A stretch of 64,000 nucleotides of DNA from the NCBI GenBank assembly GCA_963676835.2, contig CAXXFF010000004.1:256001-320000 (forward strand), given 5' to 3'. The notes beneath the pieces were generated by a model. That model was given only the letters and a program-made list of their open reading frames with translations. It searched no databases and was not told where the DNA came from. This document shows, piece by piece, positions 4,390 to 64,000 of the stretch. Within the stretch, counting starts at the first letter, position 1. Each line of letters starts with the position of its first letter. This DNA is from Marispirochaeta sp. GTDB taxonomy: Bacteria > Spirochaetota > Spirochaetia > JC444 > Marispirochaetaceae. The position numbers were made by a program, and so were the translations under genes.

Positions 4390-5541
4390 CTACTTTATTC
4401 TCTCATACAGAGCCTTAATATCCTGAAGACTGATTGCTTTGGGGTTATTATTCAGAAGCCTCTTCACCTGAAATGCAGCTTCGGACAGCTCCGGAATCGC
4501 ATCGGGCTTGATTCCGAACTCGGTCATACTGGTGGGAATCTGAATCTCATCGATCATCTGACGCAGATGGGCAATATAGGCATCGACTGAATCCACACCG
4601 CAAACTGATGCGGCTTTTATCAGCTTGTCCTGAATGGCGTCTTTGTTAAAATCCATTACCGGAACCAGCAGAATAGCATTGGAAACGCCGTGGGGAATGC
4701 GGTAGCGACCGCCCAGGGGATAGGAGAGTGCATGAACAGCGGTTGTTCCCGAAGAGGCAATGGCCATACCGCCATAGAAAGACCCCAACAGCATGTCTGC
4801 CCGGGCCTTCATATTGTCACCGTTTTTCACAGCATCCCGTATAGCACAGTCTATAAGGCGGATGCCCTCAAGGGCAATTACATCACTGTATGGATTTGCC
4901 TTATTTGATGTGTAGCATTCAATACAATGACAGTAGGCATCCACACCGGTGGATGCCGTCAGCTTCGGAGGCAGAGACCTGGTCATCAGTGGATCGAGAA
5001 TAACAAAATCAGGCACAAAATAGGGGCTTACAACACCCACCTTCATCTGCTGCTCTTTCAGGGCCACAATGGAATTGGGTGTTGCCTCCGCACCGGTACC
5101 TGCAGTGGTGGGAACCATTACGCAGGTAATTCCCGGTCCGGGAGAGCCTGATTCCATGAGCGTCGCAATCGACCCACCCCACTTGAGCAGAATTGAAAGG
5201 AATTTGGCAGTATCCAGAACACTGCCGCCGCCGACGGCCACAATGGCCTGGATATTTCTGCTGCCGAGCCCGGATGCCAGGGATTCAATGTCCTCAGAAT
5301 AGGGCTCCTGAGGCACCGTATCTATAAGATCAACGGTAAAACCGTCGGATTCAATGGCTGAGGCTATTCCCTGAGGGATTCCGGATCCGCCGATGCCTTT
5401 GTCGGTAAGAACAAGGATCGTGCCTTTTTTCAGAGCATCAGACTGAGATCCCAGGATTTCGCCGATTCTGGAAGCTTCTCCCTCACCGAAATAGACGCTC
5501 CGGGGAGCAAGAAACGAAAAGTTCTTCAGTACACTCATCAC
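4390..5541 (-). CDS. Iron-containing alcohol dehydrogenase
   Basis: GGGSVLDTAK, PTTAGTGAEAT, DAYCHCIE, HALSY, HGVSNA motifs. Confidence 0.92.
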   Translation of the reverse strand: MMSVLKNFSFLAPRSVYFGEGEASRIGEILGSQSDALKKGTILVLTDKGIGGSGIPQGIASAIESDGFTVDLIDTVPQEPYSEDIESLASGLGSRNIQAIVAVGGGSVLDTAKFLSILLKWGGSIATLMESGSPGPGITCVMVPTTAGTGAEATPNSIVALKEQQMKVGVVSPYFVPDFVILDPLMTRSLPPKLTASTGVDAYCHCIECYTSNKANPYSDVIALEGIRLIDCAIRDAVKNGDNMKARADMLLGSFYGGMAIASSGTTAVHALSYPLGGRYRIPHGVSNAILLVPVMDFNKDAIQDKLIKAASVCGVDSVDAYIAHLRQMIDEIQIPTSMTEFGIKPDAIPELSEAAFQVKRLLNNNPKAISLQDIKALYERIK

Positions 5542-6560
5542 ACCATCCTCACGCCGTACTCGATAGCCTGCAGCATACTTTCCGGGTTCGCACGGCCTTC
5601 ACCGGCTTTTCCGAAGGCAGTTCCGTGATCCACGGAAGAACGGATTATCGGCAGCCCCAGGGTTATATTCACGCCGCTCATGGAGAGCCAGGTGTTGGTG
5701 GCGCGATCGTAGTTGAATCCCGCCAGCTTGGTGGGGATGTGTCCCTGATCATGGTACTGCACCACAACAATGTCAAACTGTCCGCCTTTCATCTTGGAGA
5801 AAACCGTATCCGGAGGAAGCGGCCCCTCAACGGTCATCCCTTCCGATACTGCCTGTTCAATTGCCGGGATAATTTCATCAAACTCTTCCCGGCCGAACAT
5901 GCCGTTTTCTCCCGCATGGGGGTTAAGGCCTGCCACAGCAATCCGGGGCTTTTTTATGCCGAGCTTCTTCAGGGCATCGTCAGCGAGTTTAATCACCCTG
6001 TAGATCCGATCCTTCTTACAGCGGTTGATCGCCTCCTGAAGGGAAACATGGGTGGAGACATGAACAACCCGAAAATCCCCTTCTGCCAGCATCATGGCGT
6101 AATCTTTGGTGCCGGTTTTTTTTGCATAGATTTCCGTATGCCCCGCCTCATGAACCCCGGCCGCGTTGATGGCTTCCTTGTTTATGGGACCGGTGATGGT
6201 GGCATCAATCTCTTTAGCCATGGCAAGTTCTATAACCTTCTCGATGTATTCATAACTTGCTTTACCGGTCATGGCTGCAACGGTCTTATATTTGAGCTGG
6301 CTCATATCGACATTCTTCATATCAAGGACATCAATAGTGCCAAACTCATACTTGCCCTCCGCCGGGGATGACACCGCATTGGTCTCAAGGGAAAGCCCTG
6401 AAAACTCTATTGCGGCCTTCATTACCTTAAGATCACATACGGCCAAGGGCCTGCAGATATCGTATACATGTTTTTCATTCAACGCCTTGGCGGTTATCTC
6501 GGGCCCTATTCCGGCCGGATCGCCTACACTGATACCCAAAATTGGAAGTTTATTACTCAC
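5538..6560 (-). CDS. pdxA: PdxA-family dehydrogenase (PdxA2, D-threonate/erythronate-4-phosphate type by context)
   Basis: GDPAGIGPE, GHTE, GLNPHAGE, YHDQG, RSSVDHGTA motifs; adjacent to a four-carbon acid sugar kinase. Confidence 0.92.
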   Translation of the reverse strand: MSNKLPILGISVGDPAGIGPEITAKALNEKHVYDICRPLAVCDLKVMKAAIEFSGLSLETNAVSSPAEGKYEFGTIDVLDMKNVDMSQLKYKTVAAMTGKASYEYIEKVIELAMAKEIDATITGPINKEAINAAGVHEAGHTEIYAKKTGTKDYAMMLAEGDFRVVHVSTHVSLQEAINRCKKDRIYRVIKLADDALKKLGIKKPRIAVAGLNPHAGENGMFGREEFDEIIPAIEQAVSEGMTVEGPLPPDTVFSKMKGGQFDIVVVQYHDQGHIPTKLAGFNYDRATNTWLSMSGVNITLGLPIIRSSVDHGTAFGKAGEGRANPESMLQAIEYGVRMV

Positions 6561-49891: not shown

Positions 49892-51553
49892 CTAGTAGGC
49901 GGCAAAACCGAATATCAGCAGGCCGCTGAAGAAAAACACCAGCACCGTATGCAGATTGGGCATCATTTTGCGCACCGTTGCTGCATAAGCCTTCCCCGCT
50001 CCTGTTTTAAGTCCCAGAAATATGAGTATCCCCGCAGGAATCAGGTACAGAACCGTTGAAAGCTTATTCAGACTCCAGAGAGAGGGAGCGGAAGAGACCT
50101 TTCCCGGCTCAATCAGGAAGGCAATAATCCGGCTGACGGTGCTGCCGAAAACTCCTGCAGCAATACAGAGAACAGCAAGGAAAAACAGGGTAATGCCTTC
50201 CAGAACAGCTTTAGAAGCGGACTCTGTTTCCCTCAGATCCACTGACATCGAAGGTGAAGGCAGATAAATCCTGCTCAGCTTGATAAAGCTTGCCACCGTC
50301 ATAAAACCGGTAAGCCATATAAGGTAATAGGCGGGGGATCCTTTCATGGCATAGCTGATAAAGGCCTTGCTGGCATATCCGTTGAAGGGTGGCATTCCGG
50401 CAATGGAGGCTGCCGCGACAAAGAAGGTGATCGCCGCCAGGGGTATCTCCCTTCCCAGAGGGCGAATGACATACAGGTTTCTGCTTTTTCCACGCTCAAC
50501 CGCCATACCTACGGTGAGAAACAGCAGGCTTTTAAACAGGGCATGATTTACCGCATGAAACACCGAGGCACTGAAGCCGGCAGCAGTACCGGTACCGAAT
50601 ACCGCCAGGATATAGCCCATCTGCGAGACGGAGTGAAATGCAAGCAGCCGTTTGGCATCGGACTGAGCCAGGGCATAGAGCACCGCCGCAAGGGCCGTAA
50701 GGGCACCAATCCAGAGCAGCAGGGAATAGAGGTAGTCGCCGTTAAAGGCAACGAGAATACGCACCATGGCAAAGAATGATATTTTTATCAGCACCCCGGA
50801 AAGGAGAGCAGAAACCGGATGGGGAGCAAAGGCATGGGCTTCCGGCAGCCAGGTATGAAAGGGAATGAAGGCGGTACGGACTCCGATACCGACACAGAGG
50901 GAGGCCAGAGCAAAGTGGACAGCTTTTCCGGAAACTCCTGCTCCGGGACTTTCAAGAGCTTTATGAATCAAATCAAGAGAAAGAACCCCAAGTTCACGGT
51001 AAATAAGAAATACCCCGAAAAGAAAAAAGAGAATGCCCACAGAACTGAGAATCAGATACTTGAATCCCGCCACCAGGGATGCAGGGCTCTGCTCATAGAC
51101 AATAAGCATATAGGCGGCTATGGCTACAATCTCGAAACAGACAAACATGGTAAAGAGATCCCCCGTTAATGCCACCCCTATAAGACCCGCAGCCATGAGG
51201 GACAGGAAAAGGTAGTAGGCGGAGGAAAACTTTTTAGACCCGAAAGAAAACAGTCCGGAAAAAAAAGAGAGCAGGGAAACCAGGATAATGGAGATCCAGG
51301 CAAAGCCGTCAAGCACGAGGCTTATTCCCCATGGTTCAGGCCAGCCGCCCAGGGAGTAGACTATTCTGCCGCCTTCATACACCTCCGGTAAAAAGGGGGC
51401 AGCTATAAGTCCCGGGAGAAGAATTGAAACAATAGAAACAAAGGAGAGGGCTCTTCCGGCGGAGGGGAAGATTTTCCCGAACAGTGCAAGGGCACCGCCG
51501 GTCATGGGGAGAGCTATCATCAGAGGAATCAGAGGAGTCAGTGTTTCACTCAT
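49892..51553 (-). CDS. mnhD: Mrp/Mbh antiporter-like subunit D (MnhD/NuoM family)
   Basis: GDLFTMFVCFE, FHTWLPEAH, HSVSQMGY, NHALFKSLLF, GMPPFNG. Confidence 0.85.
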   Translation of the reverse strand: MSETLTPLIPLMIALPMTGGALALFGKIFPSAGRALSFVSIVSILLPGLIAAPFLPEVYEGGRIVYSLGGWPEPWGISLVLDGFAWISIILVSLLSFFSGLFSFGSKKFSSAYYLFLSLMAAGLIGVALTGDLFTMFVCFEIVAIAAYMLIVYEQSPASLVAGFKYLILSSVGILFFLFGVFLIYRELGVLSLDLIHKALESPGAGVSGKAVHFALASLCVGIGVRTAFIPFHTWLPEAHAFAPHPVSALLSGVLIKISFFAMVRILVAFNGDYLYSLLLWIGALTALAAVLYALAQSDAKRLLAFHSVSQMGYILAVFGTGTAAGFSASVFHAVNHALFKSLLFLTVGMAVERGKSRNLYVIRPLGREIPLAAITFFVAAASIAGMPPFNGYASKAFISYAMKGSPAYYLIWLTGFMTVASFIKLSRIYLPSPSMSVDLRETESASKAVLEGITLFFLAVLCIAAGVFGSTVSRIIAFLIEPGKVSSAPSLWSLNKLSTVLYLIPAGILIFLGLKTGAGKAYAATVRKMMPNLHTVLVFFFSGLLIFGFAAY

Positions 51554-51893
51554 CAATCTTCCAGGCCTGTAGTTCAATTTCCCTTATATCCAGGGTATTA
51601 AAGCGCTGAAAAAGGGCATCGCACAGGGCCAGGGCCAGGGCGACAATACAGACTCCCACAACAATGGCAGTCAGCATGAGCGCCTGGGGCAAGGGGTCAA
51701 CCATGGCGCTGTGCTCCGCACCGCTTCCCTCAATGGGGGCAATAGTACCGGAGAAAGACCCGTAGTAGAGAAACAGAAGAATAATACCGCTGTTGGCGAT
51801 GCTCAGTGCCATTACCTTCTTAACAATGTTCGGTTTTCGTAAAACTCCCCAGAGTCCCACAAGAAAAACCGCCCCGGTCAGATACCAGATCAC
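51546..51893 (-). CDS. mnhC: Mrp antiporter subunit C
   Basis: VDPLPQALMLTAIVVG motif. Confidence 0.88.
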   Translation of the reverse strand: MIWYLTGAVFLVGLWGVLRKPNIVKKVMALSIANSGIILLFLYYGSFSGTIAPIEGSGAEHSAMVDPLPQALMLTAIVVGVCIVALALALCDALFQRFNTLDIREIELQAWKIDE

Positions 51894-52318
51894 TCTTCCT
51901 CCCGATTATCCTGAAACAGACGTATGCAGATAAGGCTGATACCGGCTCCTACCTTCAGCCCGATGATCACGTTAAAAATCAGAATCAATGAGATTCTGGG
52001 GCCCTCAGAAGCTTCAACGGCCCCGCCAAGCAGCCCGAGAAAGCCGGTACCGTAGAGGGCGCCGGCAAAGCCGATAAGAAGGAGCAACAAAAATCCCACA
52101 GCCTCGATTAGAGAAAGGGCCCGATACGGATACAGTCTCTCCACGGCATCGATCCCCCGGCTTACGCTCATGAGAATCACCGCCGAGGCAATGACCACCC
52201 CGCCCTGGAACCCGCCGCCGGGAGAAAGATGCCCGTATGCGAGAAGATAAAAACCGAAAAGCAGCATAAAGGGGGTCAGCTTCCGGGAAACGAGATCAAG
52301 AATATCACTCTTCTCCAT
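51890..52318 (-). CDS. mnhB: Mrp antiporter subunit B (MnhB domain)
   Basis: GHLSPGGGFQGG, GLKVG. Confidence 0.88.
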   Translation of the reverse strand: MEKSDILDLVSRKLTPFMLLFGFYLLAYGHLSPGGGFQGGVVIASAVILMSVSRGIDAVERLYPYRALSLIEAVGFLLLLLIGFAGALYGTGFLGLLGGAVEASEGPRISLILIFNVIIGLKVGAGISLICIRLFQDNREEE

Positions 52319-52595
52319 GATTCCCCCCGGTAAGATAGAGCACTCCGGAAACAGCAAGGAGAAGCACAATAGTTTCCCCCAGGGTATCGAAAGCCCGGAA
52401 ACCGAGATAGATGGAGGTAACCAGATTCAGGGCTCCGGTCTCCGCCTCTCCGTTGGCCACAATGTAATCCCGGATGGTACTGGCCTCCGGATGAGGACCG
52501 GAAAGGGCTGTAAAAAGAAAAAGCCCCACCAGAAGGACCAGGGCAATCTCAAGCCCTCCCCGAACCAATTTAAAAAGCCGCCGCCCCTGTTTCAT
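52305..52595 (-). CDS. MbhE-like subunit (MrpA C-terminal fragment)
   Basis: NLVTSIYLGFRAFDTLGE motif. Confidence 0.8.
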   Translation of the reverse strand: MKQGRRLFKLVRGGLEIALVLLVGLFLFTALSGPHPEASTIRDYIVANGEAETGALNLVTSIYLGFRAFDTLGETIVLLLAVSGVLYLTGGNHGEE

Positions 52596-52825
52596 GTATC
52601 ATCCCTCCGGCCGGTGCGGTGGACAATCCAGATCATAACCAGGGTTCCAACCCCGGTTCCCACAGCGGCTTCCGTCAGGGCTACATCGGGAGCGTGGTAG
52701 AGAAAAAAGACCAGGCAGCTGAGCAGACTGAATACCCCGAGCATAAGCACAGCCGCAAGCATATCCTTCAACTGAAGGGCGATAACTCCGCTTATGAGCA
52801 TGAGAATCAGCAGGATTTCAACCAT
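52592..52825 (-). CDS. DUF4040/MbhD-like subunit
   Basis: APDVALTEAAVG motif. Confidence 0.8.
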   Translation of the reverse strand: MVEILLILMLISGVIALQLKDMLAAVLMLGVFSLLSCLVFFLYHAPDVALTEAAVGTGVGTLVMIWIVHRTGRRDDT

Positions 52826-53147
52826 CCGACCCTCCCAGTTCCCGCCGTTTCCGGTATCCCCGCTTCCAGGGGATAATACCGTTCTGCCAGGCGAAGCGGG
52901 CAATAATATGGGCGGAAATAGGGTTTGTCACAAAGAAAAATATGGTAATGACCAAAAGCCGGCCGGTCATGGGACCCCATCCGGCAATAAGAAAACAGCC
53001 GATGAGGATGGAAAACACCGAGGTTGTACTGCAGGTGGAAGATGCCTGCAGCCGGGTGTATACATCAGGAAACACCAGAACTCCGATGTTTCCCATAATA
53101 TTAAAGATTACTCCCAGACCGAAAAAAATTGCCGCCGCAATAGTCAC
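52818..53147 (-). CDS. mnhG: Mrp antiporter subunit G
   Basis: FPDVYTRLQA, TNPISAHII. Confidence 0.85.
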   Translation of the reverse strand: MTIAAAIFFGLGVIFNIMGNIGVLVFPDVYTRLQASSTCSTTSVFSILIGCFLIAGWGPMTGRLLVITIFFFVTNPISAHIIARFAWQNGIIPWKRGYRKRRELGGSDG

Positions 53148-53419
53148 AGGTCCCCTCCCCGGTTTTTCTGCCCGCCGAAGTAACGGGTAAGGGCAAGAAT
53201 TCCGACGAAGCCGAATATATCGTAAACCAGGGCCACATCAAGATAGATTACATGATTACCTGCCACGGAATAGATAACCAGCACCGCAAGGGTCTGGGAG
53301 GCAACCAGATTGAGCCCTGTCATACGGTCAGCCACGGTGGGGCCGATTACCACGCGGATCATACTGATAACGGAGGAGGCAATAAGAAAATAGATCAGAT
53401 AAGTCAGCATCAGAGCCAT
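53144..53419 (-). CDS. mnhF: Mrp antiporter subunit F
   Basis: RVVIGPTVADR, YLDVALV..FGFVG. Confidence 0.85.
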   Translation of the reverse strand: MALMLTYLIYFLIASSVISMIRVVIGPTVADRMTGLNLVASQTLAVLVIYSVAGNHVIYLDVALVYDIFGFVGILALTRYFGGQKNRGGDL

Positions 53420-53922
53420 ACCCTTCGCAGCAGCTTCTCAAAGGTGCCTTTTATAAGATCCCCGGCATAGCGGGAATGGCTGGTCCGGGCATCAAGCCAG
53501 TGAACGATCAGGTGATCATCATCCAGATCCAGGGTAATGGTTCCGGGAGTCAGGGTTATGGAGCTGGTCAGGGCAACCCGGGCAATATCCGTCTTAAGGT
53601 GGGTGCGAAAATGGACAATTCCGGGGTTTATGCGTCCCCGCAGAATATTGAGAAGAACCTTGAAACTGGCCACATACATATTGAAGATGAGTACCAGCAG
53701 AAAGACGACAAACATATGCGGCCGGGGAAGGTGGGCCCGGCGGCCGGCTTCGGACTCTTCAATAAACTGCCGGTAGGTAAGCAGGGAAACCAGCAGACTT
53801 GCAACACCGCCGGCAACAAGCGAACCGGAATCCAGGGACCAGGTAAAGAGCAGCCAGCCTCCGAAAAGAGAGAAAAAGGTAATGAAAAAGCGGACCAGGG
53901 CCCAGCGGGTTTCAAGCCTCAT
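53410..53922 (-). CDS. mnhE: Mrp antiporter subunit E
   Basis: INPGIV, SITLTPGT, L.VH, FEK. Confidence 0.87.
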   Translation of the reverse strand: MRLETRWALVRFFITFFSLFGGWLLFTWSLDSGSLVAGGVASLLVSLLTYRQFIEESEAGRRAHLPRPHMFVVFLLVLIFNMYVASFKVLLNILRGRINPGIVHFRTHLKTDIARVALTSSITLTPGTITLDLDDDHLIVHWLDARTSHSRYAGDLIKGTFEKLLRRVWL

Positions 53923-54380
53923 TTACTCTCCCTGCTGATAAAAGCCGCCATTACCTCCTCTGCTGAGGATGCCGCCAGAAGAGCATTGCAGAAGGTACGG
54001 TCGTGGAGGTACCGGGCGAGCCGGCTGAGAACCTTCAGGTGTCCCGCTTCATCCCCTTCCGGACCAATGAGCAGGAAAAAGAGGGCCACCGGCTGATTAT
54101 CCACGGCATCGAATTTTGCCCCCTCAAGCCTTCTTCCGAAAACAATGCGGGTGTCGGCAACCTGGGAAGTGAAACAGTGGGGAATGGCAATGCCCGAACC
54201 GATGCCGGTGGTATTGATCTTTTCCCGCTTCTTCAAATCCCGCACAATTTCATCGGGCTTTGCAAGCTCGGTACTGCGGGCGAGGATATCAACCAGTTCC
54301 CGTAAAATATCCGGTTTGCGTCTGGACTTCAGAGACAACTCTATACCTTCAATGGTAAGAAGTTCGTGCAGCAGTGCCAT
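53919..54380 (-). CDS. PTS EIIA (Fru/Ntr-type) domain protein
   Basis: REK..TTGIGSGIAIPH phospho-His motif, HLKVLSRLAR. Confidence 0.88.
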   Translation of the reverse strand: MALLHELLTIEGIELSLKSRRKPDILRELVDILARSTELAKPDEIVRDLKKREKINTTGIGSGIAIPHCFTSQVADTRIVFGRRLEGAKFDAVDNQPVALFFLLIGPEGDEAGHLKVLSRLARYLHDRTFCNALLAASSAEEVMAAFISRESK

Positions 54381-54718
54381 CAATCCTCCTCCACCAGTCC
54401 CGCAGCCCAGTCCACAGGCAGGGTAAACAGAATTCCTGTTCCGGGATTGTCCAGACCGCCGCAAATCTCATTCAGCAGACTGTGAAGCCTTGGAACCAGG
54501 GACTCATTCTGAACAACGGAAAAAATGGTTTTGTTATAGGGTTTATTCCCTTTCATGAACTCTTTGAATCCTGCAAAAAGGGGTACCTCATAGGTTAGAA
54601 ACCGGCCCATTCCCTCGGAGTCAAGGATGGTTCCTCCGGAAATTCCTACTTCCGCATATGCTTCCAGTACCTGTTCAAGGAGTTCTTCACGATTCAGTAC
54701 AAACACTACAAGCTTCAT
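54380..54718 (-). CDS. PII-like protein
   Basis: GISGGTILDSEGMG and GTGILFTLPV, PII-superfamily pattern. Confidence 0.72.
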   Translation of the reverse strand: MKLVVFVLNREELLEQVLEAYAEVGISGGTILDSEGMGRFLTYEVPLFAGFKEFMKGNKPYNKTIFSVVQNESLVPRLHSLLNEICGGLDNPGTGILFTLPVDWAAGLVEED

Positions 54719-54826
54719 ATCTGCTTTCCCGCGGCCGCCGGCTAAGGGCGGTTTACTGATATGTTTTAAGGTACCCGGTGACTGGAGGGGAGTCAATGGA
54801 ATATTCTGGCCAGAATCAGTTGAGAA

Positions 54827-55282
54827 TCAATTAAGATAGGTACTGAAGCTGTCAAAGATATGATAGCGCCTAAGGTCCGGAAGATTACCGATTACTATCC
54901 GGTTTTCATATTCCACCCAGGCGTGGGCTTCAAAGGGTTCATCCCCCCCCATGGCAACTCCAACTTTAAGCTCAACAGAATAGCCCTGACGGCGGCATAG
55001 AGTATATGCAGTAAAGGCCCGGGGCAGACAGTTGTAGGTTCCGGGAAGCAGCCTCCCCCATATTTCAACCCAGCGGCAGGTATCAACAACACCTGCGTCG
55101 AATCCACCGGCTGGAGACTTCTCCGCCTGCTGCTTTAAACGGCTTACGGCCTGCTGAAAAGGGTATCGGCGGAGAACCAGCCTTGTGCTGAAAAGCATCA
55201 TCCCCGCCTGGAGAAACGCAGCCTTCCCCCTGGAGGGAAGCGCGTAAAAGCGGCGGATTTTATTAAGCAAGCGTATCCACAA
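54827..55282 (-). CDS. Lasso-type leader peptidase B2 (transglutaminase-like)
   Basis: NCLPRA...G..VELKVGV...FEAHAWVE catalytic Cys/His motif; coupled to upstream PqqD gene; start uncertain (TTG 55282 or 55270). Confidence 0.85.
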   Translation of the reverse strand: MWIRLLNKIRRFYALPSRGKAAFLQAGMMLFSTRLVLRRYPFQQAVSRLKQQAEKSPAGGFDAGVVDTCRWVEIWGRLLPGTYNCLPRAFTAYTLCRRQGYSVELKVGVAMGGDEPFEAHAWVEYENRIVIGNLPDLRRYHIFDSFSTYLN

Positions 55283-55538
55283 GACCTTCTTCTCCAAGTT
55301 TCTCCGCAAGGGCGAGAATATCCTCCCTGCACTGATCTTCTGCAACATCGAATTCCTGCTGAACCAGGGAACACAGACCTGCAAGGGATTCAGCCTTAAC
55401 AATATTCTTCCAGATAAAAGCTCCTACTTCATTGAGACTGAAATAGAAACCACGTTCAACATGCATGAGCACCATTTCACCGTTTACTTCGGTATGAATA
55501 ACCCCTTCCCGCTGCTGTATCCGTGTATTTAAATCCAT
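55263..55538 (-). CDS. PqqD/RRE protein (lasso B1)
   Basis: EVNGEMVLM..G.YFSLNEVGAFIW, FDVAEDQCREDI..L..EGLV. Confidence 0.9.
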   Translation of the reverse strand: MDLNTRIQQREGVIHTEVNGEMVLMHVERGFYFSLNEVGAFIWKNIVKAESLAGLCSLVQQEFDVAEDQCREDILALAEKLGEEGLVDTLA

Positions 55539-55656: not shown

Positions 55657-56868
55657 ATGAAAAAAACAGCAGAAGAAGAAATACTGATCGCACTGACTGC
55701 GGATAGAACCGACAGGGCAGTGTCAATTATAAAAGCCGAAGATCCGGATTACCGGAAACTGCTTCAATTAGCGGCGAAGCACAAACTTCACGGTATTACC
55801 GCCCAGAAACTGCTGGATATTTCCCGGCAGACTGGAATTGAACTGTCCGAAGCCGATATTACCGGAACCCTCCAGGCGGCGGTGGCCATGAATATGCAGC
55901 TGAAAGCCGGGTTTCTTGGTGTAAAGGAGATGCTGAAAAAAGAGCAGGTTGATTTCCTGCTGATAAAAGGCTTTGCCCTGGATCCGTCCCCTTTGAGGGC
56001 AATGAATGATATCGACATCCTTATCCGGGAGGATAAAATTCGTCAGGTTTTTGAGGCAATGACCGCCGGGGGCTACACCTACATGGGCAGTAATGTCATG
56101 ACAAAAGAGGAATTTGCCGACCCCTTTTCCACCCTCCACTGGAACAACCAGTTTCAGTTCAGATCGCCCCGGGTACCGGCGGATATTGAAATTCACACAG
56201 AACTGTTTGAACGGGACAGAATACGGCTGGAACGGCTTGACCGGTTTCTGGACAAGGCTGAGTTTTTCTGGGAAAACCGCAGATACCGGAAAGACCTCGA
56301 CTGTTACATACCGTCTCCGGAAGCAAATCTTGCCCTGCTGACCATCCACTGCACCACAAAACGTTCACCCGCCCACAACACCTATATTCTTCGCCATGCT
56401 TACGACCTGCACGCCCTGCTTGGGGAAAATCGTGACATGGAGAATATAGTGAATATGGAAAGATTTCTCTACCTCTGCAGTGAGTGGAAAATCGGCTACT
56501 ACGCCTATACTGCCTTCCGGCTTACAGCTCTGGCCCTTGATCTGCCGGATATCCTTGAAAAAGCTGAACTGTTGAAACCGCTCTTAACCAGGCGGGAGCT
56601 GATCCTCTCCAACCTGCACCTCAACTGCTACCGGGGCCTGGGAGATGCATCTTTTTTACGGCGGAAACTGTTTGCCCTGTTTATGCCCTTTGCCATAGGG
56701 GGCAGCGTAAAAAAAGGGGTAAGCTGGTACAGGAAAATACTCTTTCCCCCGGCATGGTACCAGGAGGAGCGGTACGGCATAAAAAGAAGTTCTCCCTTCT
56801 TCTTTCTCAGTTATATCTACGGACCCTTTGTTTTTCTGTGGCGGCGACTTACAGGGCTGAGTGAATAA
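55657..56868 (+). CDS. Nucleotidyltransferase family protein (NTP_transf_5-like)
   Basis: LIKGFAL, R.MNDIDILI, IEIH motifs. Confidence 0.82.
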   Translation: MKKTAEEEILIALTADRTDRAVSIIKAEDPDYRKLLQLAAKHKLHGITAQKLLDISRQTGIELSEADITGTLQAAVAMNMQLKAGFLGVKEMLKKEQVDFLLIKGFALDPSPLRAMNDIDILIREDKIRQVFEAMTAGGYTYMGSNVMTKEEFADPFSTLHWNNQFQFRSPRVPADIEIHTELFERDRIRLERLDRFLDKAEFFWENRRYRKDLDCYIPSPEANLALLTIHCTTKRSPAHNTYILRHAYDLHALLGENRDMENIVNMERFLYLCSEWKIGYYAYTAFRLTALALDLPDILEKAELLKPLLTRRELILSNLHLNCYRGLGDASFLRRKLFALFMPFAIGGSVKKGVSWYRKILFPPAWYQEERYGIKRSSPFFFLSYIYGPFVFLWRRLTGLSE

Positions 56869-56907: not shown

Positions 56908-58734
56908 TCAGGACTCTTTTATCTGACGCAGCTGGGTATGATAGAGCCCTGCATAATAGCCGGCTGCCTGAACAAGCTCATCGTGGGAGCCCTCCTCTAT
57001 TACCCGGCCGCCCCGCATAACATAGATTCGGTCCGCCCGGCGTGCAGCGGCAATCTTGTGGCTTACCAGAAGCAGACTGCCTCCTCCCACAATACCCCTT
57101 ATATTGTCGATAAAATCTGATTCCGAGGGTGGATCAAGCTCCGCGGTGGGCTCATCGAGGATAGTAAAGGGTGCTCCCCGGAAAACGGTACGGGCCAGAG
57201 CTACTTTTTTCCACTGACCTCCGCTCAGTTCCGCACCGTCTTCGAGCCAGCGGCCGAGGACAGTCCCGTATCCGTCGGGTAAAGCCTTTAGAAACTCATG
57301 GGCGCCGACTTTTTCCGCCGCCTCATGCAGGGCAGAATTATTGTCATTGGTTATATCACCGTAGCGGATATTCTCAGCGGCGGTATAGTAGTAGTGGGTA
57401 AAATCCTGAAAGAGCACACCCAGATTTTTACGATACTCCTCAGGCTCCAGGCTGCGCAGATCGGTGCCGTTCAGGCAGACCCTGCCCTCATCGGGTTCAT
57501 AAAACCTGCAGAGCAGGTTGATAAGGGTACTTTTACCTGCACCGTTGTCTCCCACAATGGCAACAAACTCGCCGGGGGCTATTTTGAGTGAAACCCTGTC
57601 GAGAACCTTGTTTGCGGTTCCGGGGTAATGAAAACTGACGGATTCAACCGAGAGACCCCGGCTGTCATCAATAAGCGGTCCATCGCCGCCGGCTTTACCC
57701 TCACCTGTCGCCTCTTTTACCTTTTCAACCTCCACCGGCAGATTCAGAAACTCAAAAACCGCCGACAGGTATAAATTGGTCTCATACAGACGGGCCACGC
57801 CCCGAAGCAGATCGGACATGGCCTGCTGGCCCCGCTGGATAGCCTGAAAGAAAAGTACAAGATTTCCCAGAGAGGTTCCGCTGGTAATGCTTGTGTAGGC
57901 AAAATATCCTAAAAGCCCAATGGTAATGAGCGACTGGAATGCAACGGCAAAGAATTCACCCGCCGCCCGGCGGCCGGTAAGAGACAGAAGCTCTCTGCGG
58001 AGCCTGATTCTCCAGGAAGAGGCCTTCTCCTGAAAATGGTCCTGCAGACCGTTGATACGGTTTTCCCGTACATTGGTTTTATCTGTAAGCAGCCAGTTAA
58101 GATAAAAAACATGCCGTTCCGAGGAGGTCTGCTCCATTCGCCAGGCATAGATCCTGGCAGACGAGGAGAGAAGCACCAGAGCCACCGGCAGTGCAGAAAC
58201 TGCCAGAAGCAGAATGGTAAACCAGGGAAGAGTGTAAATAAGCAGCCCCGCAATACCGGCAATGGAGACAGCGGAGCTTATGAGGCCGGTTACAATATCT
58301 ACAATCTGGGCAGGACGGTAGGGCGCTTCCGCCTGAGCCCGGTGAAGCTTGTCGTGAAACTCGGGCACCTCATAATAGGCAAGATCGAGCTCCACCGACT
58401 TCTGTTGAACCACACCCTGCATATAGTCGCTTAATACCTGCCCCTGCACCTGACGGAGAAAATTGCCCCCGGTGCGGAACAGGGCGGACAAAAGGAGCGC
58501 TGCCCCGGTAAGCATAATTACCGGCAGAATCTCCGCAAAGCCGCCGCCGGCCGCCAGGGTATCCACCATGAGTTTTACCGCATAGAGGGGAACAAGGGGG
58601 ACAATCCCCTGAAATGTCATAACAGTAACTGTAAGCAGGCTTAAGCCGGGGCTGCTTTTCCAGAGCAGCCCGATACCACGGGAAAATACGCCGGCCCCTT
58701 TCCTGAGGCGCAGTATGCGGCCGGAAAGGTTCAC
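56908..58734 (-). CDS. ABC exporter (fused TMD + ATPase)
   Basis: GDNGAGKST, LSGGQW, ILDEPT; N-terminal TM domain. Confidence 0.92.
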   Translation of the reverse strand: MNLSGRILRLRKGAGVFSRGIGLLWKSSPGLSLLTVTVMTFQGIVPLVPLYAVKLMVDTLAAGGGFAEILPVIMLTGAALLLSALFRTGGNFLRQVQGQVLSDYMQGVVQQKSVELDLAYYEVPEFHDKLHRAQAEAPYRPAQIVDIVTGLISSAVSIAGIAGLLIYTLPWFTILLLAVSALPVALVLLSSSARIYAWRMEQTSSERHVFYLNWLLTDKTNVRENRINGLQDHFQEKASSWRIRLRRELLSLTGRRAAGEFFAVAFQSLITIGLLGYFAYTSITSGTSLGNLVLFFQAIQRGQQAMSDLLRGVARLYETNLYLSAVFEFLNLPVEVEKVKEATGEGKAGGDGPLIDDSRGLSVESVSFHYPGTANKVLDRVSLKIAPGEFVAIVGDNGAGKSTLINLLCRFYEPDEGRVCLNGTDLRSLEPEEYRKNLGVLFQDFTHYYYTAAENIRYGDITNDNNSALHEAAEKVGAHEFLKALPDGYGTVLGRWLEDGAELSGGQWKKVALARTVFRGAPFTILDEPTAELDPPSESDFIDNIRGIVGGGSLLLVSHKIAAARRADRIYVMRGGRVIEEGSHDELVQAAGYYAGLYHTQLRQIKES

Positions 58735-59735
58735 CGTACCACCTGAGAGCGGCCCGGGGCGGCATTAAGAAACGCTATAACATCAGGCAATCGTTCATAG
58801 CCTTCGGGAATGTTCAAAATCTGAACAGGAACCTGAGCCGCCACGGCACCTATCATGCCCAGACGTTTCTGTCCCCGGTCTACCGCATCCAGAAGCTCCG
58901 CTGCAAAGGCATGTCGAACCAGGGACATAACCCCTTCTGCTGCTCCTACAGGAGTTACAGAAGGTTGATCAGAGCCGTTTCGGCTGAGAAAATAGATTGC
59001 AGTAAGAGGTAGGTTATGAGAATAGAATGATCCTAACTGCTCACTGTGCTGCGGAACCTTCAGCCCCCGTTGGCCCGCCAGGCTTATAGAACCTACAGGA
59101 ATTTTAAGCTTTTCGAAGCCCGGGTGTATTTTTCCGTAATTATCCGGATTTCCCCCTAAAATTTTCAGCTGATGAGAAAAGAGCTTCATCTGGGGAAATC
59201 CCGGAAAAGCTGTAACTCCATCAGGTCCCACGGACAAAGCCAGAATATCATCAGTTACCAGGGGATACCCCCCTGCGACACAGGCGGTAGCCAGGGTGGT
59301 TTTACCGGTGCCGGAATCTGCAATAAAAGCGACGCAGCCGTCTCCTGCCTTGACGGCCGATGCATGCAGCATAAGAATACCCTGCCGCTCCAGCCAGAAG
59401 GACATAACATTGCCCACAAAGAAGATCTCAATAAGATATTCAATATCCGGCAGCAGAGGATGGGCGGTAATCTCATTACCCCGCATTTCAAATCCGCAGA
59501 CCCCGGTTATGTAGAGGGTCTCGCAGGTTTCGGAAAGAAAAAGCTCCACCCGGCCCCCCTCATAGTTTTCCACCGGGGCACGGACCCCTTCCGGAGTGTA
59601 CTCCGGGTTTACGGGCAGCACGGAAAAAGAGAGATCTACTTCGCCCCGGGGCTCCTCCGGAGGCAGGAGATTGAAAGTAAAGGGAAAGGATGAAGCGAGA
59701 TGCGCTCCGTAAAGCATGTAACGGGATTCATTCAT
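58731..59735 (-). CDS. HprK-related kinase (lasso-cluster type)
   Basis: LHASAV, DSGTGKTT Walker A, LVTDD. Confidence 0.82.
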   Translation of the reverse strand: MNESRYMLYGAHLASSFPFTFNLLPPEEPRGEVDLSFSVLPVNPEYTPEGVRAPVENYEGGRVELFLSETCETLYITGVCGFEMRGNEITAHPLLPDIEYLIEIFFVGNVMSFWLERQGILMLHASAVKAGDGCVAFIADSGTGKTTLATACVAGGYPLVTDDILALSVGPDGVTAFPGFPQMKLFSHQLKILGGNPDNYGKIHPGFEKLKIPVGSISLAGQRGLKVPQHSEQLGSFYSHNLPLTAIYFLSRNGSDQPSVTPVGAAEGVMSLVRHAFAAELLDAVDRGQKRLGMIGAVAAQVPVQILNIPEGYERLPDVIAFLNAAPGRSQVVR

Positions 59736-60933
59736 GTACAAGAAGCCCCTGTTCCTTCAAAGATGCGGCAAAATGCTCCAGATCCTTTCGAATCTCTTCC
59801 GGATCGGCATCGTAGAGGCCCGCGAGCTCTTCCGCGGCCTTTACGGTACTCTCTGCCCGAAGCAGTATATCCCACATATCCGCCGCTGTGTCTTCCAGAA
59901 GGAAACAATCTCTTCCCTGCTCTTCTCCGTTTTCGGTAAAGTCAGCCACAACAATGCGGTTTTCACCGATCCTGGCGGCCACAACTTCAGGGGCGGCAGT
60001 CCAGCCGGAAGGGCTGTCCTCATGCAGCTGAACAGTCCCCCGGTCTTCTCCTTCAAAACGGTTTCTAAAACAGCGCTGCGGAGGATAGAGGCGAAAGGCA
60101 AGTTCAATTTCGTCGGTAACGGAATTAATAAAGACACTTTCCGGTTCGCTCCAGGAGAAAACTATTGTTTTTGGATGACCTGTCCAGAGAACCTTTTCAC
60201 CTGATTTACTCTCCCATCCCGATTTCCACTGGGCATAGGTTTCTCCGTACATCTCCGGAGCCTGGTCCTGGTACTCCATGGCCGCCGTAATGGGAAAAGA
60301 CTGATGAACTCCACCTTTACCGTTACAAAGAGATTCCGGTGCAGCCAGAACCGCAACATGAACCTCCCGGTGGGGCTCCTGCTTCTGTATGGATTCGACT
60401 GTCTGGCGGATTCTGAAGCCCGAGAAAACCGCATCGTCCACAAGCAGAATTGGACGCTTTACCGCTTCCCCTCCCCTGCTCCCGGTTTCGGTCAATTTCC
60501 CCAGGGCATAGAGCAGCAGGCCGCAGACGATATATCCACCCCGGGGAACAGGTCTAATCTCAAACTGAGCCAGCCTCTCACGGCCGTATGTCCGGATAAG
60601 TTTCTCCGCAAGATCTTCCGCAAAATTTTCCGCCTCAGGGTAGCTGATATAGAGTGAATCTTTCAAAGTCTGGGGAATCTGGGTCGCCAGGCGGGCAATC
60701 AGTTCAACCCGCTCAGGAGATAAATCACCAAAAAGATAGATTCCTTCCTGCTCTTTTTTTTCTACATCATGGTGCAAACGAAGCACCATATATGCATCAC
60801 TCAGCCGGGAGTCCCGGTTCAGAGTATCTCCAAGTATCCGGAGAGCAGCGGCAGCATCTGAAGCGCCGGTCAGTTTTAAAAGGGATGAAGAATCTGTAGT
60901 TGTCGAGAATAGTTTAACTGCTTTAAATGACAT
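59728..60933 (-). CDS. Phosphoribosyltransferase-like domain fused to C-terminal PqqD/RRE
   Basis: PVPRGG loop and ILLVDDAVFSG PRPP-binding motif; C-terminus FLLEDTAADMW...YDADPEEIRKDL..F..SLKEQGLL resembles PqqD; start codon uncertain. Confidence 0.7.
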   Translation of the reverse strand: MSFKAVKLFSTTTDSSSLLKLTGASDAAAALRILGDTLNRDSRLSDAYMVLRLHHDVEKKEQEGIYLFGDLSPERVELIARLATQIPQTLKDSLYISYPEAENFAEDLAEKLIRTYGRERLAQFEIRPVPRGGYIVCGLLLYALGKLTETGSRGGEAVKRPILLVDDAVFSGFRIRQTVESIQKQEPHREVHVAVLAAPESLCNGKGGVHQSFPITAAMEYQDQAPEMYGETYAQWKSGWESKSGEKVLWTGHPKTIVFSWSEPESVFINSVTDEIELAFRLYPPQRCFRNRFEGEDRGTVQLHEDSPSGWTAAPEVVAARIGENRIVVADFTENGEEQGRDCFLLEDTAADMWDILLRAESTVKAAEELAGLYDADPEEIRKDLEHFAASLKEQGLLVHE

Positions 60934-61012: not shown

Positions 61013-61198
61013 CTAAATAATACTGCTGGTTGTTTTAATTGGCGATCCGCCTTCTGAAACCGTACCGGCGCCGCTTCCTTCACTGCTGCTTCCCTTTCCA
61101 CTGCCGAAAAGCGCCTCGATAATGCCTGACTGCGTAAGATCGGCTACACTACCCCACTCTTTAATCTGCGGTTTCTGGTATTGCTTTTTTGCCTGCAT
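61013..61198 (-). CDS. RiPP precursor A1 (61 aa, lasso-type leader)
   Basis: MQAKKQYQKPQIKEWGSVADLTQ|SGIIEALFGSGKGSSSEGSGAGTVSEGGSPIKTTSSII; GGGAG RBS. Confidence 0.8.
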   Translation of the reverse strand: MQAKKQYQKPQIKEWGSVADLTQSGIIEALFGSGKGSSSEGSGAGTVSEGGSPIKTTSSII

Positions 61199-61345: not shown

Positions 61346-61489
61346 TTAATACTCGCCCCGGGGACCGACGATCTCGATCACATTCAATGACCCGTTACCG
61401 CCGACTCTTTCTGTCAGCTTGGTAACTGTTCCCCACTGCTTTACTTCAGGCTTGGTGTAGGTTCGTTTTTCCTGTTTTTCGTTCTGCAT
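61346..61489 (-). CDS. RiPP precursor A2 (47 aa, not in ORF track)
   Basis: Manual translation MQNEKQEKRTYTKPEVKQWGTVTKLTE|RVGGNGSLNVIEIVGPRGEY*; AGGAG RBS; leader matches A1. Confidence 0.82.
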   Translation of the reverse strand: MQNEKQEKRTYTKPEVKQWGTVTKLTERVGGNGSLNVIEIVGPRGEY

Positions 61490-61550: not shown

Positions 61551-61698
61551 GGTTTTCTTTGGCGTCCTGTGATGGATTCCCGGGGTTTGAATATTTCTGG
61601 TTCCGTACCCAATGTTACGGTTTCTTTTTCCCCACTATATTACTATTATTCTCAGAATAGACAAAAATCCAGAGAGAAAGCATACAGGACGGAGAAGC

Positions 61699-62952
61699 AT
61701 GAGTTTTATCAGCCTTGACGATACCATATTCACTATTACCGAAAAATATCCCGAAACGGTGGATATTTTTGTCAGCCGGGGGTTTCCCGGCATGTCCGAC
61801 TACAACCAGCGGGCCGGCTACGGCAGGCTGCTGAGCCTCAGAAATGCCCTGAAAACCAAGGGACTGAATGAGGAGCTTTTTACCGGGCTTCTCAACGAAG
61901 CAGTGGAGAACCAGAGGGGAGCTGCGGATATAACCCTGGCCAAAATTAAACACACAAGCAGTTCTAAAGCGGTAAAGATTGCGGGGCTTCTCCCCTGCCC
62001 GGTGCGTATTCCCCTTATGGAGGAGTTCAGCCGCTTCAGCCCTGAATACGAAAAAGCCTCGGGCTTGAGTCTGAGTGCAGAGCTGAAAGCCGCCAGCAGC
62101 GGAACGGAATGGGTAAAGGAGCACCTGGATGGGGAAACATCGGAAGAGACTCTGCCGGATATCTTCATCTCCGCCGGCTTCGACCTCTTTTTTGACCGTA
62201 AAAGAATCGGCAGATTGCGGGAGCAGGGAGCCTTCAAAGACCTGCTTAAGTGGGATAAAGAAAACAGCAGCTTTGAAGGCCTGGATATCCGGGACCCCGA
62301 CGGAGTCTACTCAATTCTGGCCCTGGTGCCTGCGGTGTTTCTTGTTAACACCGGCGAACTCGGGAACAGGCCAATTCCAAAAACCTGGAAGGAGCTTCTG
62401 ACAGAAGATTTTTACGACTCCGTATCCCTGCCTGTGGGAGACTTCGATCTCTTCAATGCCATGCTTCTCTCCCTACGACAGAAGTACGGCGATGATGCCA
62501 TCCGCATGCTGGGCAGGGTTATGCAGCAGGCAATGCATCCTTCCCAGATGGTAAAGAGTGACAAAAAACAGGGAAAACGACCGGCGGTAACCATTATGCC
62601 CTACTTTTTCACCAAAACAGTCCGGGACGGGGGAGCCATGCAGGCTGTATGGCCCGAGGACGGTGCGGTAATAAGCCCTATTTTTATGCTTGCCAAGGCA
62701 GCCCGTCAGGAGGAACTGCAGCCTGCGGCGGACTTCTTCGGCTCCAGTAATATCGGGGAAATACTTGCCCGGCAGGGGCTGTTTCCCTCCCTGCATCCGG
62801 ATGTAGACAATATCCTTCCCGAGAAGAGTCCCGTTATGTGGCTGGGCTGGGATTACATAAAAAACCATGACCTCAGTGAGGAGATTACAAAAGCAGAAGC
62901 TCTCTTTAACAGCTTTACAAAAGTATCAGAAAAAGAGGAGTCGGTACGATGA
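61699..62952 (+). CDS. ABC substrate-binding-fold protein with N-terminal DUF1858-like domain
   Basis: ITEKYPETVDIF..GF N-terminus; LPCPVR, PDIFISAGFD, WPEDGA; no signal peptide. Confidence 0.75.
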   Translation: MSFISLDDTIFTITEKYPETVDIFVSRGFPGMSDYNQRAGYGRLLSLRNALKTKGLNEELFTGLLNEAVENQRGAADITLAKIKHTSSSKAVKIAGLLPCPVRIPLMEEFSRFSPEYEKASGLSLSAELKAASSGTEWVKEHLDGETSEETLPDIFISAGFDLFFDRKRIGRLREQGAFKDLLKWDKENSSFEGLDIRDPDGVYSILALVPAVFLVNTGELGNRPIPKTWKELLTEDFYDSVSLPVGDFDLFNAMLLSLRQKYGDDAIRMLGRVMQQAMHPSQMVKSDKKQGKRPAVTIMPYFFTKTVRDGGAMQAVWPEDGAVISPIFMLAKAARQEELQPAADFFGSSNIGEILARQGLFPSLHPDVDNILPEKSPVMWLGWDYIKNHDLSEEITKAEALFNSFTKVSEKEESVR

Positions 62953-63650
62953 ATCTGGTAACAGTTTCCGGCCCGCCCTCTTCCGGAAAAACCGCGGTTA
63001 TTCTGAAAACAGCCGAGGCCCTGAGGCAGCAGGGAGTTCAGGTAGGGGTAGCCAAGTTTGACTGCCTCAGTACCGAAGACGATCAGCTCTATATAAAGGC
63101 GGGTATACCGGTACAGAAAGGACTCTCAGGGGCCCTCTGCCCGGACCACTACTTTGTCAGCAATATAGAGGAGGTTACCCAATGGGGGATAAAAGAGGGG
63201 CTGGATCTGCTCATCAGTGAGTCCGCCGGACTCTGCAACCGCTGTTCCCCTTATATAAAAGAGATCGGTGCGGTCTGCGTAATAGACAACCTGAGCGGAA
63301 TCAACACCCCGAAGAAGATCGGTCCCATGCTGAAAAGCGCGGATATTGTGGTCATAACCAAGGGAGACATTGTCTCCCAGGCGGAGCGGGAGGTCTTTGC
63401 CAGCAGGGTAGGCACGGTTAATCCCAGGGCCATGGTTATCCACGTTAACGGCCTTACCGGCCAGGGCGCCTTCGAACTGAGCACCCTTGTCTACGACAAG
63501 GAGAGCCGGGTAGAAACGGTAAAAGGCAGAGAGCTCCGCTTTCCCATGCCCTCAGCCCTCTGCTCCTACTGTCTGGGAGAAACCCGCATAGGCGAAGAGT
63601 TTCAGATGGGGAATGTCCGCAAGATTAAACTGGAGAAGAAGGATGACTGA
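62949..63650 (+). CDS. HypB/UreG/CobW-like (G3E) GTP-binding protein
   Basis: GPPSSGKT, CPDH, ESAGLCNRC, TKGD, CSYC. Confidence 0.82.
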   Translation: MNLVTVSGPPSSGKTAVILKTAEALRQQGVQVGVAKFDCLSTEDDQLYIKAGIPVQKGLSGALCPDHYFVSNIEEVTQWGIKEGLDLLISESAGLCNRCSPYIKEIGAVCVIDNLSGINTPKKIGPMLKSADIVVITKGDIVSQAEREVFASRVGTVNPRAMVIHVNGLTGQGAFELSTLVYDKESRVETVKGRELRFPMPSALCSYCLGETRIGEEFQMGNVRKIKLEKKDD

Positions 63651-64000
63651 GATAGGCAGCCTTATAGAGAATACTCCTTTAAGCAACCTGGTGGAGAAGT
63701 ACCCATTTCTAACGGACTATCTTGAATCTCTGGGTATTCCAGTCGTAACAGATACCTCTCTTCCCCTGGTAAAACACCTGAACAGCCTGGGGGATGAATT
63801 TCTTGAAGACAAAGCCATTGATGTTGAAGAGACTCTCAACGGCACAGTCAGTTATATCGAACAGATGCTTGAGTTTCTCGGAATGAGCAATCACCGGCTG
63901 GCAGAGGAGATAACAATTCTGCCGGGCAAAAATAAATCCGGAGAACCTGAAGGCTTTGAAAGCCTGACTATCCGCCGGGGAGAGATAATCTCCATAGTAG
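63643..64000 (+). CDS. ABC-type ATPase, 5' part (runs off window)
   Basis: Open frame MTEIGSL...GKNKSGEPE..L.IRRGEIISIV, the pattern that precedes a Walker A; overlaps GTPase stop. Confidence 0.65.
   Translation, partial: MTEIGSLIENTPLSNLVEKYPFLTDYLESLGIPVVTDTSLPLVKHLNSLGDEFLEDKAIDVEETLNGTVSYIEQMLEFLGMSNHRLAEEITILPGKNKSGEPEGFESLTIRRGEIISIV

Follow-up and report, generated by a model that had tools for sequence, protein, structure and literature searches.

A phosphoribosyltransferase-fold protein fused to a RiPP recognition element in a cyclase-free, lasso-type gene cluster of Marispirochaeta sp.

HPr-type kinases phosphorylate serine residues in the precursors of ribosomally synthesised peptides that are modified after translation (RiPPs), and a PsmN-dependent sugar can be placed on the phosphate (PMC9266682; PMC6993621; PMC13381572). 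The clusters for linear polyphosphorylated peptides (LPP), found mostly in Bacillota, are free of a cyclase, possess a kinase and a nucleoside triphosphate (NTP) transferase, and lead to an internal phosphoserine (Popov et al., 2026; PMC13381572). Here we describe a 64,000-nucleotide stretch of the Marispirochaeta sp. contig CAXXFF010000004.1 (hereafter the window), in which a gene for a phosphoribosyltransferase (PRTase) domain fused to a RiPP recognition element (RRE) lies within a lasso-type RiPP cluster that has no cyclase. We consider it quite possible, though somewhat short of probable, that this fusion serves lasso-type RiPP pathways as a tailoring enzyme directed by the leader and, after the action of a kinase, moves phosphoribose from 5-phosphoribosyl 1-pyrophosphate (PRPP) to a core serine or to its phosphate. 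The proposal builds on four sets of observations: the folds of the protein, its conserved PRPP site, its coupling to precursor and kinase genes, and the selection acting on the cluster in the absence of a cyclase.

The update of RRE-Finder lists a family RREFam048, Phosphoribosyl_Transferase_RRE, with a cut-off of 19 bits and no text on its function (Bregman et al., 2025, Table S1; PMC12710340); to judge from the name alone, this is very likely the family of the window's fusion. The terms 'ribosyl', 'PRT' and 'PF00156' do not occur in the main text of that paper, and the readable part of the RRE-Finder 2020 supplements gave 0 matches. An initial annotation, made from the DNA letters alone, had stated that no characterised RiPP tailoring by a type I PRTase was known; this agrees with the literature searched, which, with most subscription journals outside its reach, yielded no functional study of such an enzyme and no PRPP-dependent peptide modification. 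The fusion family is catalogued and functionally uncharacterised, and the cluster described below is a new cyclase-free, lasso-derived type.

Domains, folds and modelled leader binding of the fusion protein

The genome from which the window was taken (G000) is 97% complete and consists of 4 contigs; two congeneric genomes, G402 and G401, serve for comparison. The fusion gene and its two signature loops are located in the window as follows.

59728..60933, minus strand: PRTase-RRE fusion of 401 amino acids, with an N-terminal alpha/beta domain (about residues 1-92), a type I PRTase fold (about 88-295) and a PqqD-type RRE (about 308-401)
60532..60543, minus strand: pyrophosphate loop, codons P130-R131-G132-G133, with R, G and G invariant in 114/114 relatives
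60412..60438, minus strand: PRPP loop D166-D167-A-V-F-S171-G172-F-R174, with DD invariant, S/T171 in 114/114, G172 in 113/114 and R174 in 109/114 relatives

Both type I PRTase hallmarks named in the initial annotation are present, RPVPRGG at residues 127-133 and ILLVDDAVFSG at residues 162-172, and an AlphaFold2 model built from 114 relatives (pLDDT 93.4, pTM 0.91) confirms the fold over residues 88-295. The protein thus possesses the core alpha/beta fold, the pyrophosphate loop, and a PRPP loop with two acidic residues followed by Ser/Thr-Gly. In the Foldseek search that the initial annotation had proposed as a check, the entries among the matches listed were all of the type I PRTase fold, headed by Escherichia coli XGPRT (1a97; E 2.1e-5), and VIA-align placed residues 88-290 on 5vog (Z 11.5, rmsd 4.3, 142 aligned). 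The Pfam profile Pribosyltran covers residues 162-199 (E 2.8e-4, 20.7 bits; in all 20.7-22.7 bits, below its curated cut-off of 26.3) and matches 54/91 members at E <=0.1. In the ESM Atlas, the whole fusion falls among PqqD-fusion clusters without names (0.95-0.96), and the PRT domain by itself gave leads below 0.9 only.

The PqqD-like RRE anticipated for the C-terminus was likewise recovered: the Pfam profile PqqD matches residues 342-398 above its cut-off (E 5.6e-9; 36.6 bits against 23.4), and the modelled domain, made of three strands and three helices, superposes on the lasso B1 proteins TfuB1 (6jx3 against residues 309-400; Z 10.2, rmsd 2.0, 85/85 aligned; profile E-value 3.1e-10) and TbiB1 (5v1u; Z 9.9, rmsd 1.8; profile E-value 1.4e-16). 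The fusion of PRTase and RRE is real. Beyond these two domains, the protein carries the third, small alpha/beta domain at its N-terminus, which was modelled alone with a pLDDT of 89 and had its best match (Z 6.2) in a designed ferredoxin-like protein, with no clear family match.

A phmmer search returned 412 representatives at 50% identity with E <=0.001 (339 with E <=1e-10), spread over many phyla. With a domain-only profile, the PRTase domain occurs almost always together with the RRE (PF05402 on 113/120 matches listed); cluster members of 10 fusion homologues have no annotation beyond 'hypothetical', and 0 relatives were found among 10 pattern matches on viral contigs. Within a sample of 401 genomes from the bacterium's own phylum the gene was found in G000 alone, and among relatives in 2/61. 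The alignment comprises those 114/152 relatives that are 365-435 amino acids long; at a mean column identity of about 28%, R131, G132, G133, D166, D167 and W261 are invariant in 114/114, and D223 (105), E263 (106), W250 (106) and W236 (105) are nearly so.

In the model, the PRTase domain is closest to the XGPRT/HGPRT group. With the 6-oxopurine type I PRTases (E. coli XGPRT 1a97, P. horikoshii 1vdm, N. gonorrhoeae 5vog, S. solfataricus HGXPRT 4z1o) it shares the core fold, the N-terminal strand-helix, the RGG loop, the DD loop and an FxW motif, at 15-27% identity; it differs from them in its short flexible loop and in lacking the conserved base-stacking aromatic residue, and it alone has an Arg closing the PRPP loop, a Trp-rich helical insertion, the N-terminal domain and the RRE. 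The Trp that stacks on the base in purine PRTases (KWIVFPW in 1vdm) falls on the variable column 256 (H52, P15, Y13 and L6 of 114), which makes a nucleobase an unlikely acceptor. An Asp in the PRPP loop of 6-oxopurine PRTases acts as general base; at the corresponding column 170 the fusion family has L, I or F. The fusion family retains the PRPP site without the nucleobase site, and has an open cleft.

The initial annotation had expected an RRE fused to a catalytic domain to bind the precursor leader. A complex model of the fusion with precursor A2 (see below) received a score of 0.71, and the best of 3 controls one of 0.00; the pass mark was reached by 116/157 solved complexes and 2/215 mismatched pairs; the runs share at least 44% of contacts, with partner pLDDT of at least 50. 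Modelled binding is in line with the expectation, although such a pass may come from likeness, since solved B1-leader complexes exist. In the model, the YxxP stretch contacts RRE residues 344-350, 374, 384 and 388, and the WG..DL stretch contacts residues 2-10 of the N-terminal domain. TfuB1 and TbiB1 have the same fold and, as modelled, the same mode of YxxP binding; they are stand-alone proteins serving B2, whereas this RRE is fused to a PRTase fold.

The ring-free cluster and its lineage

The other genes of the cluster are listed here.

61346..61489, minus strand: precursor A1, 47 amino acids, lasso-type leader YxxPxV..WG..T-2, lasso_cyano E 0.053 (below cut-off), AAGGAG before the start codon
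61013..61198, minus strand: precursor A2, 61 amino acids from the ATG at 61198, lasso leader, NF033521 22.5 bits, above the cut-off of 19
58731..59735, minus strand: HPr-kinase-like protein with its His, Walker A Lys and Asp-Asp retained, TIGR04352 E 3e-6 (below cut-off)
56908..58734, minus strand: MsbA-like ABC exporter, its start overlapping the kinase stop
55657..56868, plus (opposite) strand: NTP_transf_5 nucleotidyltransferase of the PsmN/LppN family, E 4.5e-21
55263..55538, minus strand: stand-alone RRE (lasso B1), PqqD E 8.9e-20, NF033536 66.8 bits, below the cut-off of 80
54827..55402, minus strand: lasso B2 leader peptidase (transglutaminase-like), NF033537 81.3 bits, above the cut-off of 33

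As had been noted initially, the fusion is the first gene behind two precursor open reading frames (ORFs), and the cluster has two RREs, these being the only two PqqD matches in the genome. Stop and start codons overlap from the fusion to the kinase and from the kinase to the ABC exporter, each cluster gene is single-copy in G000, and the true start of B2 probably lies downstream of the listed TTG. A lasso leader, B1 and B2 mark the cluster as lasso-like; a macrolactam cyclase is missing from it, and neither the A1 core (20 residues, one Gly-Ser) nor the A2 core (38 residues, Ser/Gly-rich, four Gly-Ser pairs) has an Asp or Glu at positions 7-9. The cluster is flanked on one side (49892-54796, minus strand) by genes that by sequence appearance are Mrp/Mnh-like antiporter genes, preceded by a P-II-like gene and a phosphotransferase system (PTS) EIIA-2 gene, and on the other (61612-64000, plus strand) by a gene for DUF1858 fused to a solute-binding protein, followed by a CobW/HypB-type GTPase gene and a probable ABC ATPase gene; the latter flank is kept in G402.

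A lasso cyclase was found neither in the G000 genome nor in G402 (0 matches to the cyclase model). Two Asn-synthase-like genes of G000 were considered as distant cyclases and rejected: they lie at other loci, begin with MCGI and are AsnB-like. The one on contig C2 scores 498 bits with TIGR01536 (glutamine-hydrolysing AsnB) against 231 with the cyclase model NF033535, to which the one on contig C4 scores 163 bits.

In G402, which belongs to the same genus and is a single contig, the same cluster stands at the same site with an orthologue of A2 only (61% identical to that of the window); a counterpart of A1 was not found at the cluster site. Identities between the two clusters amount to 59-83%, all cluster frames are intact in both species, and dN/dS is 0.08-0.16 for five cluster genes against 0.02-0.10 for three flanking genes, as estimated by a simple counting method at a synonymous divergence of about 1.3-2.0, where sites are near saturation. 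The cyclase-free cluster is under purifying selection in two species. Its retention in both species in the absence of a ring points to selection for the decoration as such.

The PRTase gene is absent from 4/5 congeners. The congener G401, which lacks the fusion, has an ordinary lasso cluster with a cyclase and an Asp9 core. This cluster (locus L170 on G401:C14) comprises RRE, B2, cyclase, a Trp-rich precursor, kinase, ABC and nucleotidyltransferase genes and adjoins genes resembling a polysaccharide/acyl locus, whose G000 counterpart at C2:1-8000 has no lasso cluster. Loss of the cyclase with retention of the tailoring genes would be the simplest reading. In the PRTase quick tree, the nearest fusion relatives are P0003, P0005-P0007, P0009 and P0010; one row, L040, sits on a very long branch and is an artefact of a wrong reading frame.

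Both genomes also encode a third precursor, which is not linked to the cluster and has the same lasso leader (G000:C2:20051-20212, plus strand, or L254:1486-1647; G402 L253:1486-1644). In each it exceeds the NF033521 cut-off and lies upstream of a response-regulator gene, with no biosynthetic gene adjoining; the cores share an ICIP end stretch, and that of G402 has Asp8 and Gly13-Ser14, while that of G000 has no acid at positions 7-9.

The absence of a cyclase, the A1 gene not being shared with G402 and the lack of the PRTase gene in most congeners would also be expected if the window cluster were a decaying lasso remnant that has lost its cyclase and makes no product. We regard this as very improbable, given frames that are intact in two species at such synonymous divergence and dN/dS values, an A2 that is kept in both, and the retention of the unlinked same-leader precursor in both genomes.

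Gene neighbourhoods, precursor cores and kinases of related loci

For comparison, 80 genome and 79 metagenome loci of fusion homologues were fetched (the best 80 of 147 and the best 80 of 133 were kept), using for the contig scans a probe made of a 24-row subset with the commonest motifs, which biases the loci. When the ORFs of 160 loci were clustered, the window included and many contigs being short, 127 loci proved to have a kinase and 116 a cyclase-like gene. Sixteen cyclase-like genes from 12 of these loci (one protein being represented by two rows) had NF033535 as their best model, as had the G401 gene, most of them scoring below cut-off. Thirty-five genome loci have at least 6 kb on both sides of the fusion; among these, a kinase is present in 34, a cyclase in 32, a nucleotidyltransferase in 23, a separate RRE in 21 and B2 in 20. 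For cyanobacterial fusion loci without a cyclase, one was found elsewhere in 5/5 genomes tested (three of the 35 loci and two more). Controls were cyclase-anchored regions from samples of four groups, in one of which the weakest matches were left out; two control loci repeating L012 and L038 were dropped before counting. In the 52 lasso-like control loci, a kinase occurs in 41, the fusion in 2 and a nucleotidyltransferase in 30, so that the last is not specific to fusion loci (23/35 versus 30/52).

The initial annotation had placed the fusion where a cyclase might be expected. Its position as first gene after the precursors and the cyclase-free cluster of the window fit the strong form of this idea, in which the fusion takes the cyclase's place as the class-defining step. 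We find this scarcely credible: a lasso cyclase adjoins the fusion in 32 of the 35 well-flanked relatives and is encoded elsewhere in all five cyanobacterial genomes, and precursors directly upstream of a fusion have an Asp or Glu at core positions 7-9 in 73/80 distinct cases (the 80 including the window's two). The fusion thus accompanies lasso pathways as an accessory and does not stand in for the cyclase.

Several groups of loci have gene arrangements of their own. Kinase and PRTase-RRE form a two-gene unit in L042, L047, L061, L081, L030 and L054 (cyanobacteria), behind a CHAT-domain gene in four loci scanned; 5/5 such genomes tested have a lasso cluster elsewhere, and in 4 of the 5 regions concerned there is a precursor with a Gly-Ser in its tail. 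Tandem lasso cyclase homologues occur in L009, L012, L016, L026, L116 and others, both being best on NF033535 in four pairs scanned. In L040, L084, L108, L142 and L150-L153 (Acidobacteriota where named), the fusion is accompanied by SdrD-B-repeat surface proteins as well as a small gene without assignment, and several cores in this subgroup have Ser/Thr-Thr-Lys-Ala in place of Gly-Ser. The cluster is also present at L064, in a record labelled as a Methanospirillaceae archaeon metagenome-assembled genome.

A Gly-Ser pair behind the ring was found at 56/70 fusion loci versus 5/25 control loci, a count that leaves out loci without a ring residue (4/74 fusion and 10/35 control loci, three of those ten controls having an internal Gly-Ser). 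Fifty-nine of 73 fusion tails contain the pair, compared with a mean of 28.5 and a maximum of 40 in 2000 shuffles; control tails have no excess (6/35 versus 5.8 in shuffles). Ser or Thr is present in all 73 fusion tails, Lys/Arg in 59, Asn/Gln in 53, His in 16 and Trp in 8; Ser/Thr is the only nucleophile class common to all. A C-terminal Ser was rejected as the target, since its frequency does not differ (9/70 fusion versus 5/25 control loci). Small leader-bearing ORFs at L042:11120-11278 and L245 near 5386-5550 share an SDLQQ..F..FASL core without Asp/Glu at 7-9 and are possibly another linear precursor type.

In a quick tree of 117 kinases, the window kinase belongs to a clade of 58 rows drawn from fusion loci only (SH-aLRT 94, just below the mark of 95), to which 0/41 kinases from PRTase-free loci belong. 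This clade keeps the His, the Lys and the Asp-Asp and has residues of its own (E117 in 58/58, R253 in 54, R292 in 55).

Proposed reaction, alternatives and comparison with described systems

Leader-directed transfer of phosphoribose might proceed as follows. The fusion would pair with a dedicated HPr-type kinase; its RRE is modelled to grip the YxxP half of the leader and its N-terminal domain the WG..DLT half, a grip that would hold the core near the open PRTase site. The kinase would phosphorylate a serine of the core, in all likelihood that of a Gly-Ser pair, and the PRTase domain would pass 5-phosphoribose from Mg-PRPP to the serine phosphate or hydroxyl (+212 Da), in either order of the two enzymes. 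By homology, leader removal would next fall to B1/B2 and export of the product to the ABC transporter; in most relatives the cyclase would also close the ring. As the lineage has no cyclase and the cores no ring acid, the window product would be a linear decorated peptide. A PRPP-dependent peptide modification, as already suggested in the initial annotation, is thus what we infer for the pathway.

Several observations weigh against this proposal. The spacing from RGG to DD is 34 residues (median of 114) and 35 in the window protein, versus 55 in 1vdm; hence most of the long flexible loop, by which canonical, catalytic type I PRTases close their active site, is missing, the shortfall being about 20 residues. 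At the end of the PRPP loop stands Arg174 (109/114) where canonical enzymes have Thr/Ser, and Cys168, common in the family, is Ala in the window and G402 fusions. The core is not placed in the complex model, 18/76 kinases of fusion loci fall outside the clade (mostly cyanobacterial ones or second copies), and locus counts overstate the case because the loci are related and not independent. The window's Gly-Ser pairs could be chance, its cores being rich in Gly and Ser. Four of the five Gly-Ser control loci are cyanobacterial clusters, with a fusion in 0/5 such genomes (search positive controls 3/3); since Gly-Ser thus occurs in fusion-free clusters, the motif may be a signature of the kinase only, the fusion working at a later step or having disappeared. 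Characterised PRTases use nitrogen acceptors (PMC12961424).

PRT-fold proteins need not be enzymes. PyrR and PurR are non-catalytic regulators that also keep the DD motif. By analogy, the PRT fold of the fusion could bind PRPP, a nucleotide or a phosphopeptide, and the RRE could deliver the precursor to the kinase or gate the kinase by metabolic state, the product being only (poly)phosphorylated. The short flexible loop, the kinase partner in 34/35 loci with translational coupling in the window, the cyanobacterial two-gene units, Gly-Ser in PRTase-free clusters and weak NCBIfam matches to PyrR (E 0.012) all fit such an adaptor or sensor. We nevertheless think it rather unlikely, because the conserved D223, E263, W261, W250 and W236 beyond the PRPP loops suggest a shaped acceptor pocket, and most lasso kinases work without the fusion (of 52 control loci, 41 have a kinase and 2 a PRTase).

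The fusion might alternatively be an enzyme with a different chemistry or acceptor. It could attach phosphoribose to a nitrogen (of the N-terminal amine, of an amide in the backbone or a side chain, or of Lys/Arg), the ribose being what the kinase acts on; it could react with a di-phosphoserine bound in the pyrophosphate loop; or its reaction could depend on Cys168. Besides the nitrogen nucleophiles of characterised PRTases, the polyphosphates that lasso kinases build on Ser (PMC9266682), the clade-specific kinase residues E117, R253 and R292, which may mean another substrate, and the conservation of Cys168 (101/114) and Cys288 (96/114) speak for it. This, too, seems unlikely to us, as every tail has Ser/Thr whereas no nitrogen side chain recurs in all of them, and as position 168 is occupied by Ala in the fusions of the window and of G402, both of which are under purifying selection.

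Taken one step further, transfer of phosphoribose to serine or phosphoserine of the linear peptide could be followed by addition of AMP by the nucleotidyltransferase, giving an ADP-ribosylated peptide made independently of NAD (212 + 329 = 541 Da); the lasso pathway would then have given up its ring and retained this decoration as the chemistry that defines it. Such a route, built like nucleotide salvage (PRTase, then adenylyltransferase) if true, is in our view distinctly doubtful, and the nucleotidyltransferase gene, which is found equally often in loci without the fusion, weighs against it.

This locus contributes a variant without a ring, tests of Gly-Ser and of the kinase clade against controls, and the absence of most of the flexible loop. 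With at least 412 clusters at 50% identity, one assay would annotate many lasso clusters and may explain the substrate of orphan nucleotidyltransferases; the window locus is a good test case because, without a cyclase, its product is a linear, sequenceable peptide.

Among RiPPs with ribose-phosphate chemistry, minviopeptin is modified by the ADP-ribosyltransferase (ART) MicD, likewise with +541 Da (PMC12912966). Unlike the fusion, MicD has a NAD-dependent ART fold, a His acceptor and no RRE, and acts independently of the leader; 'phosphoribos' has 0 occurrences in that paper. Lasso clusters of the paeninodin/pseudomycoidin type (PadeK, ThcoK, SyanK, PsmK, PsmN) share with the window B1, B2, an HPr-type kinase with His-Lys-Asp-Asp, a nucleotidyltransferase and an ABC exporter; in them a cyclase is present, the C-terminal Ser is the target and a sugar can go on the phosphoserine (PMC9266682; PMC6993621). 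The window, by contrast, has no cyclase, ring acid or C-terminal Ser (the last found in only 9/70 fusion loci) and possesses the extra PRTase-RRE. LPP clusters, whose kinase acts on an internal Ser, resemble the window in having no macrolactam cyclase and in their RRE, HprK-like kinase, NTP transferase, MsbA-like exporter and YxxP-type leader (PMC13381572). They use an archaeal-type signal peptidase and the leader motif YxxPxVLxHQxIxFETxxS, whereas the window has the lasso B2 peptidase, lasso leaders without the HQ and FET of that motif, and the PRTase-RRE. The cluster works like an LPP cluster with a PRTase-RRE added, and offers lasso clusters a second way to linear phosphopeptides that is independent of LPP.

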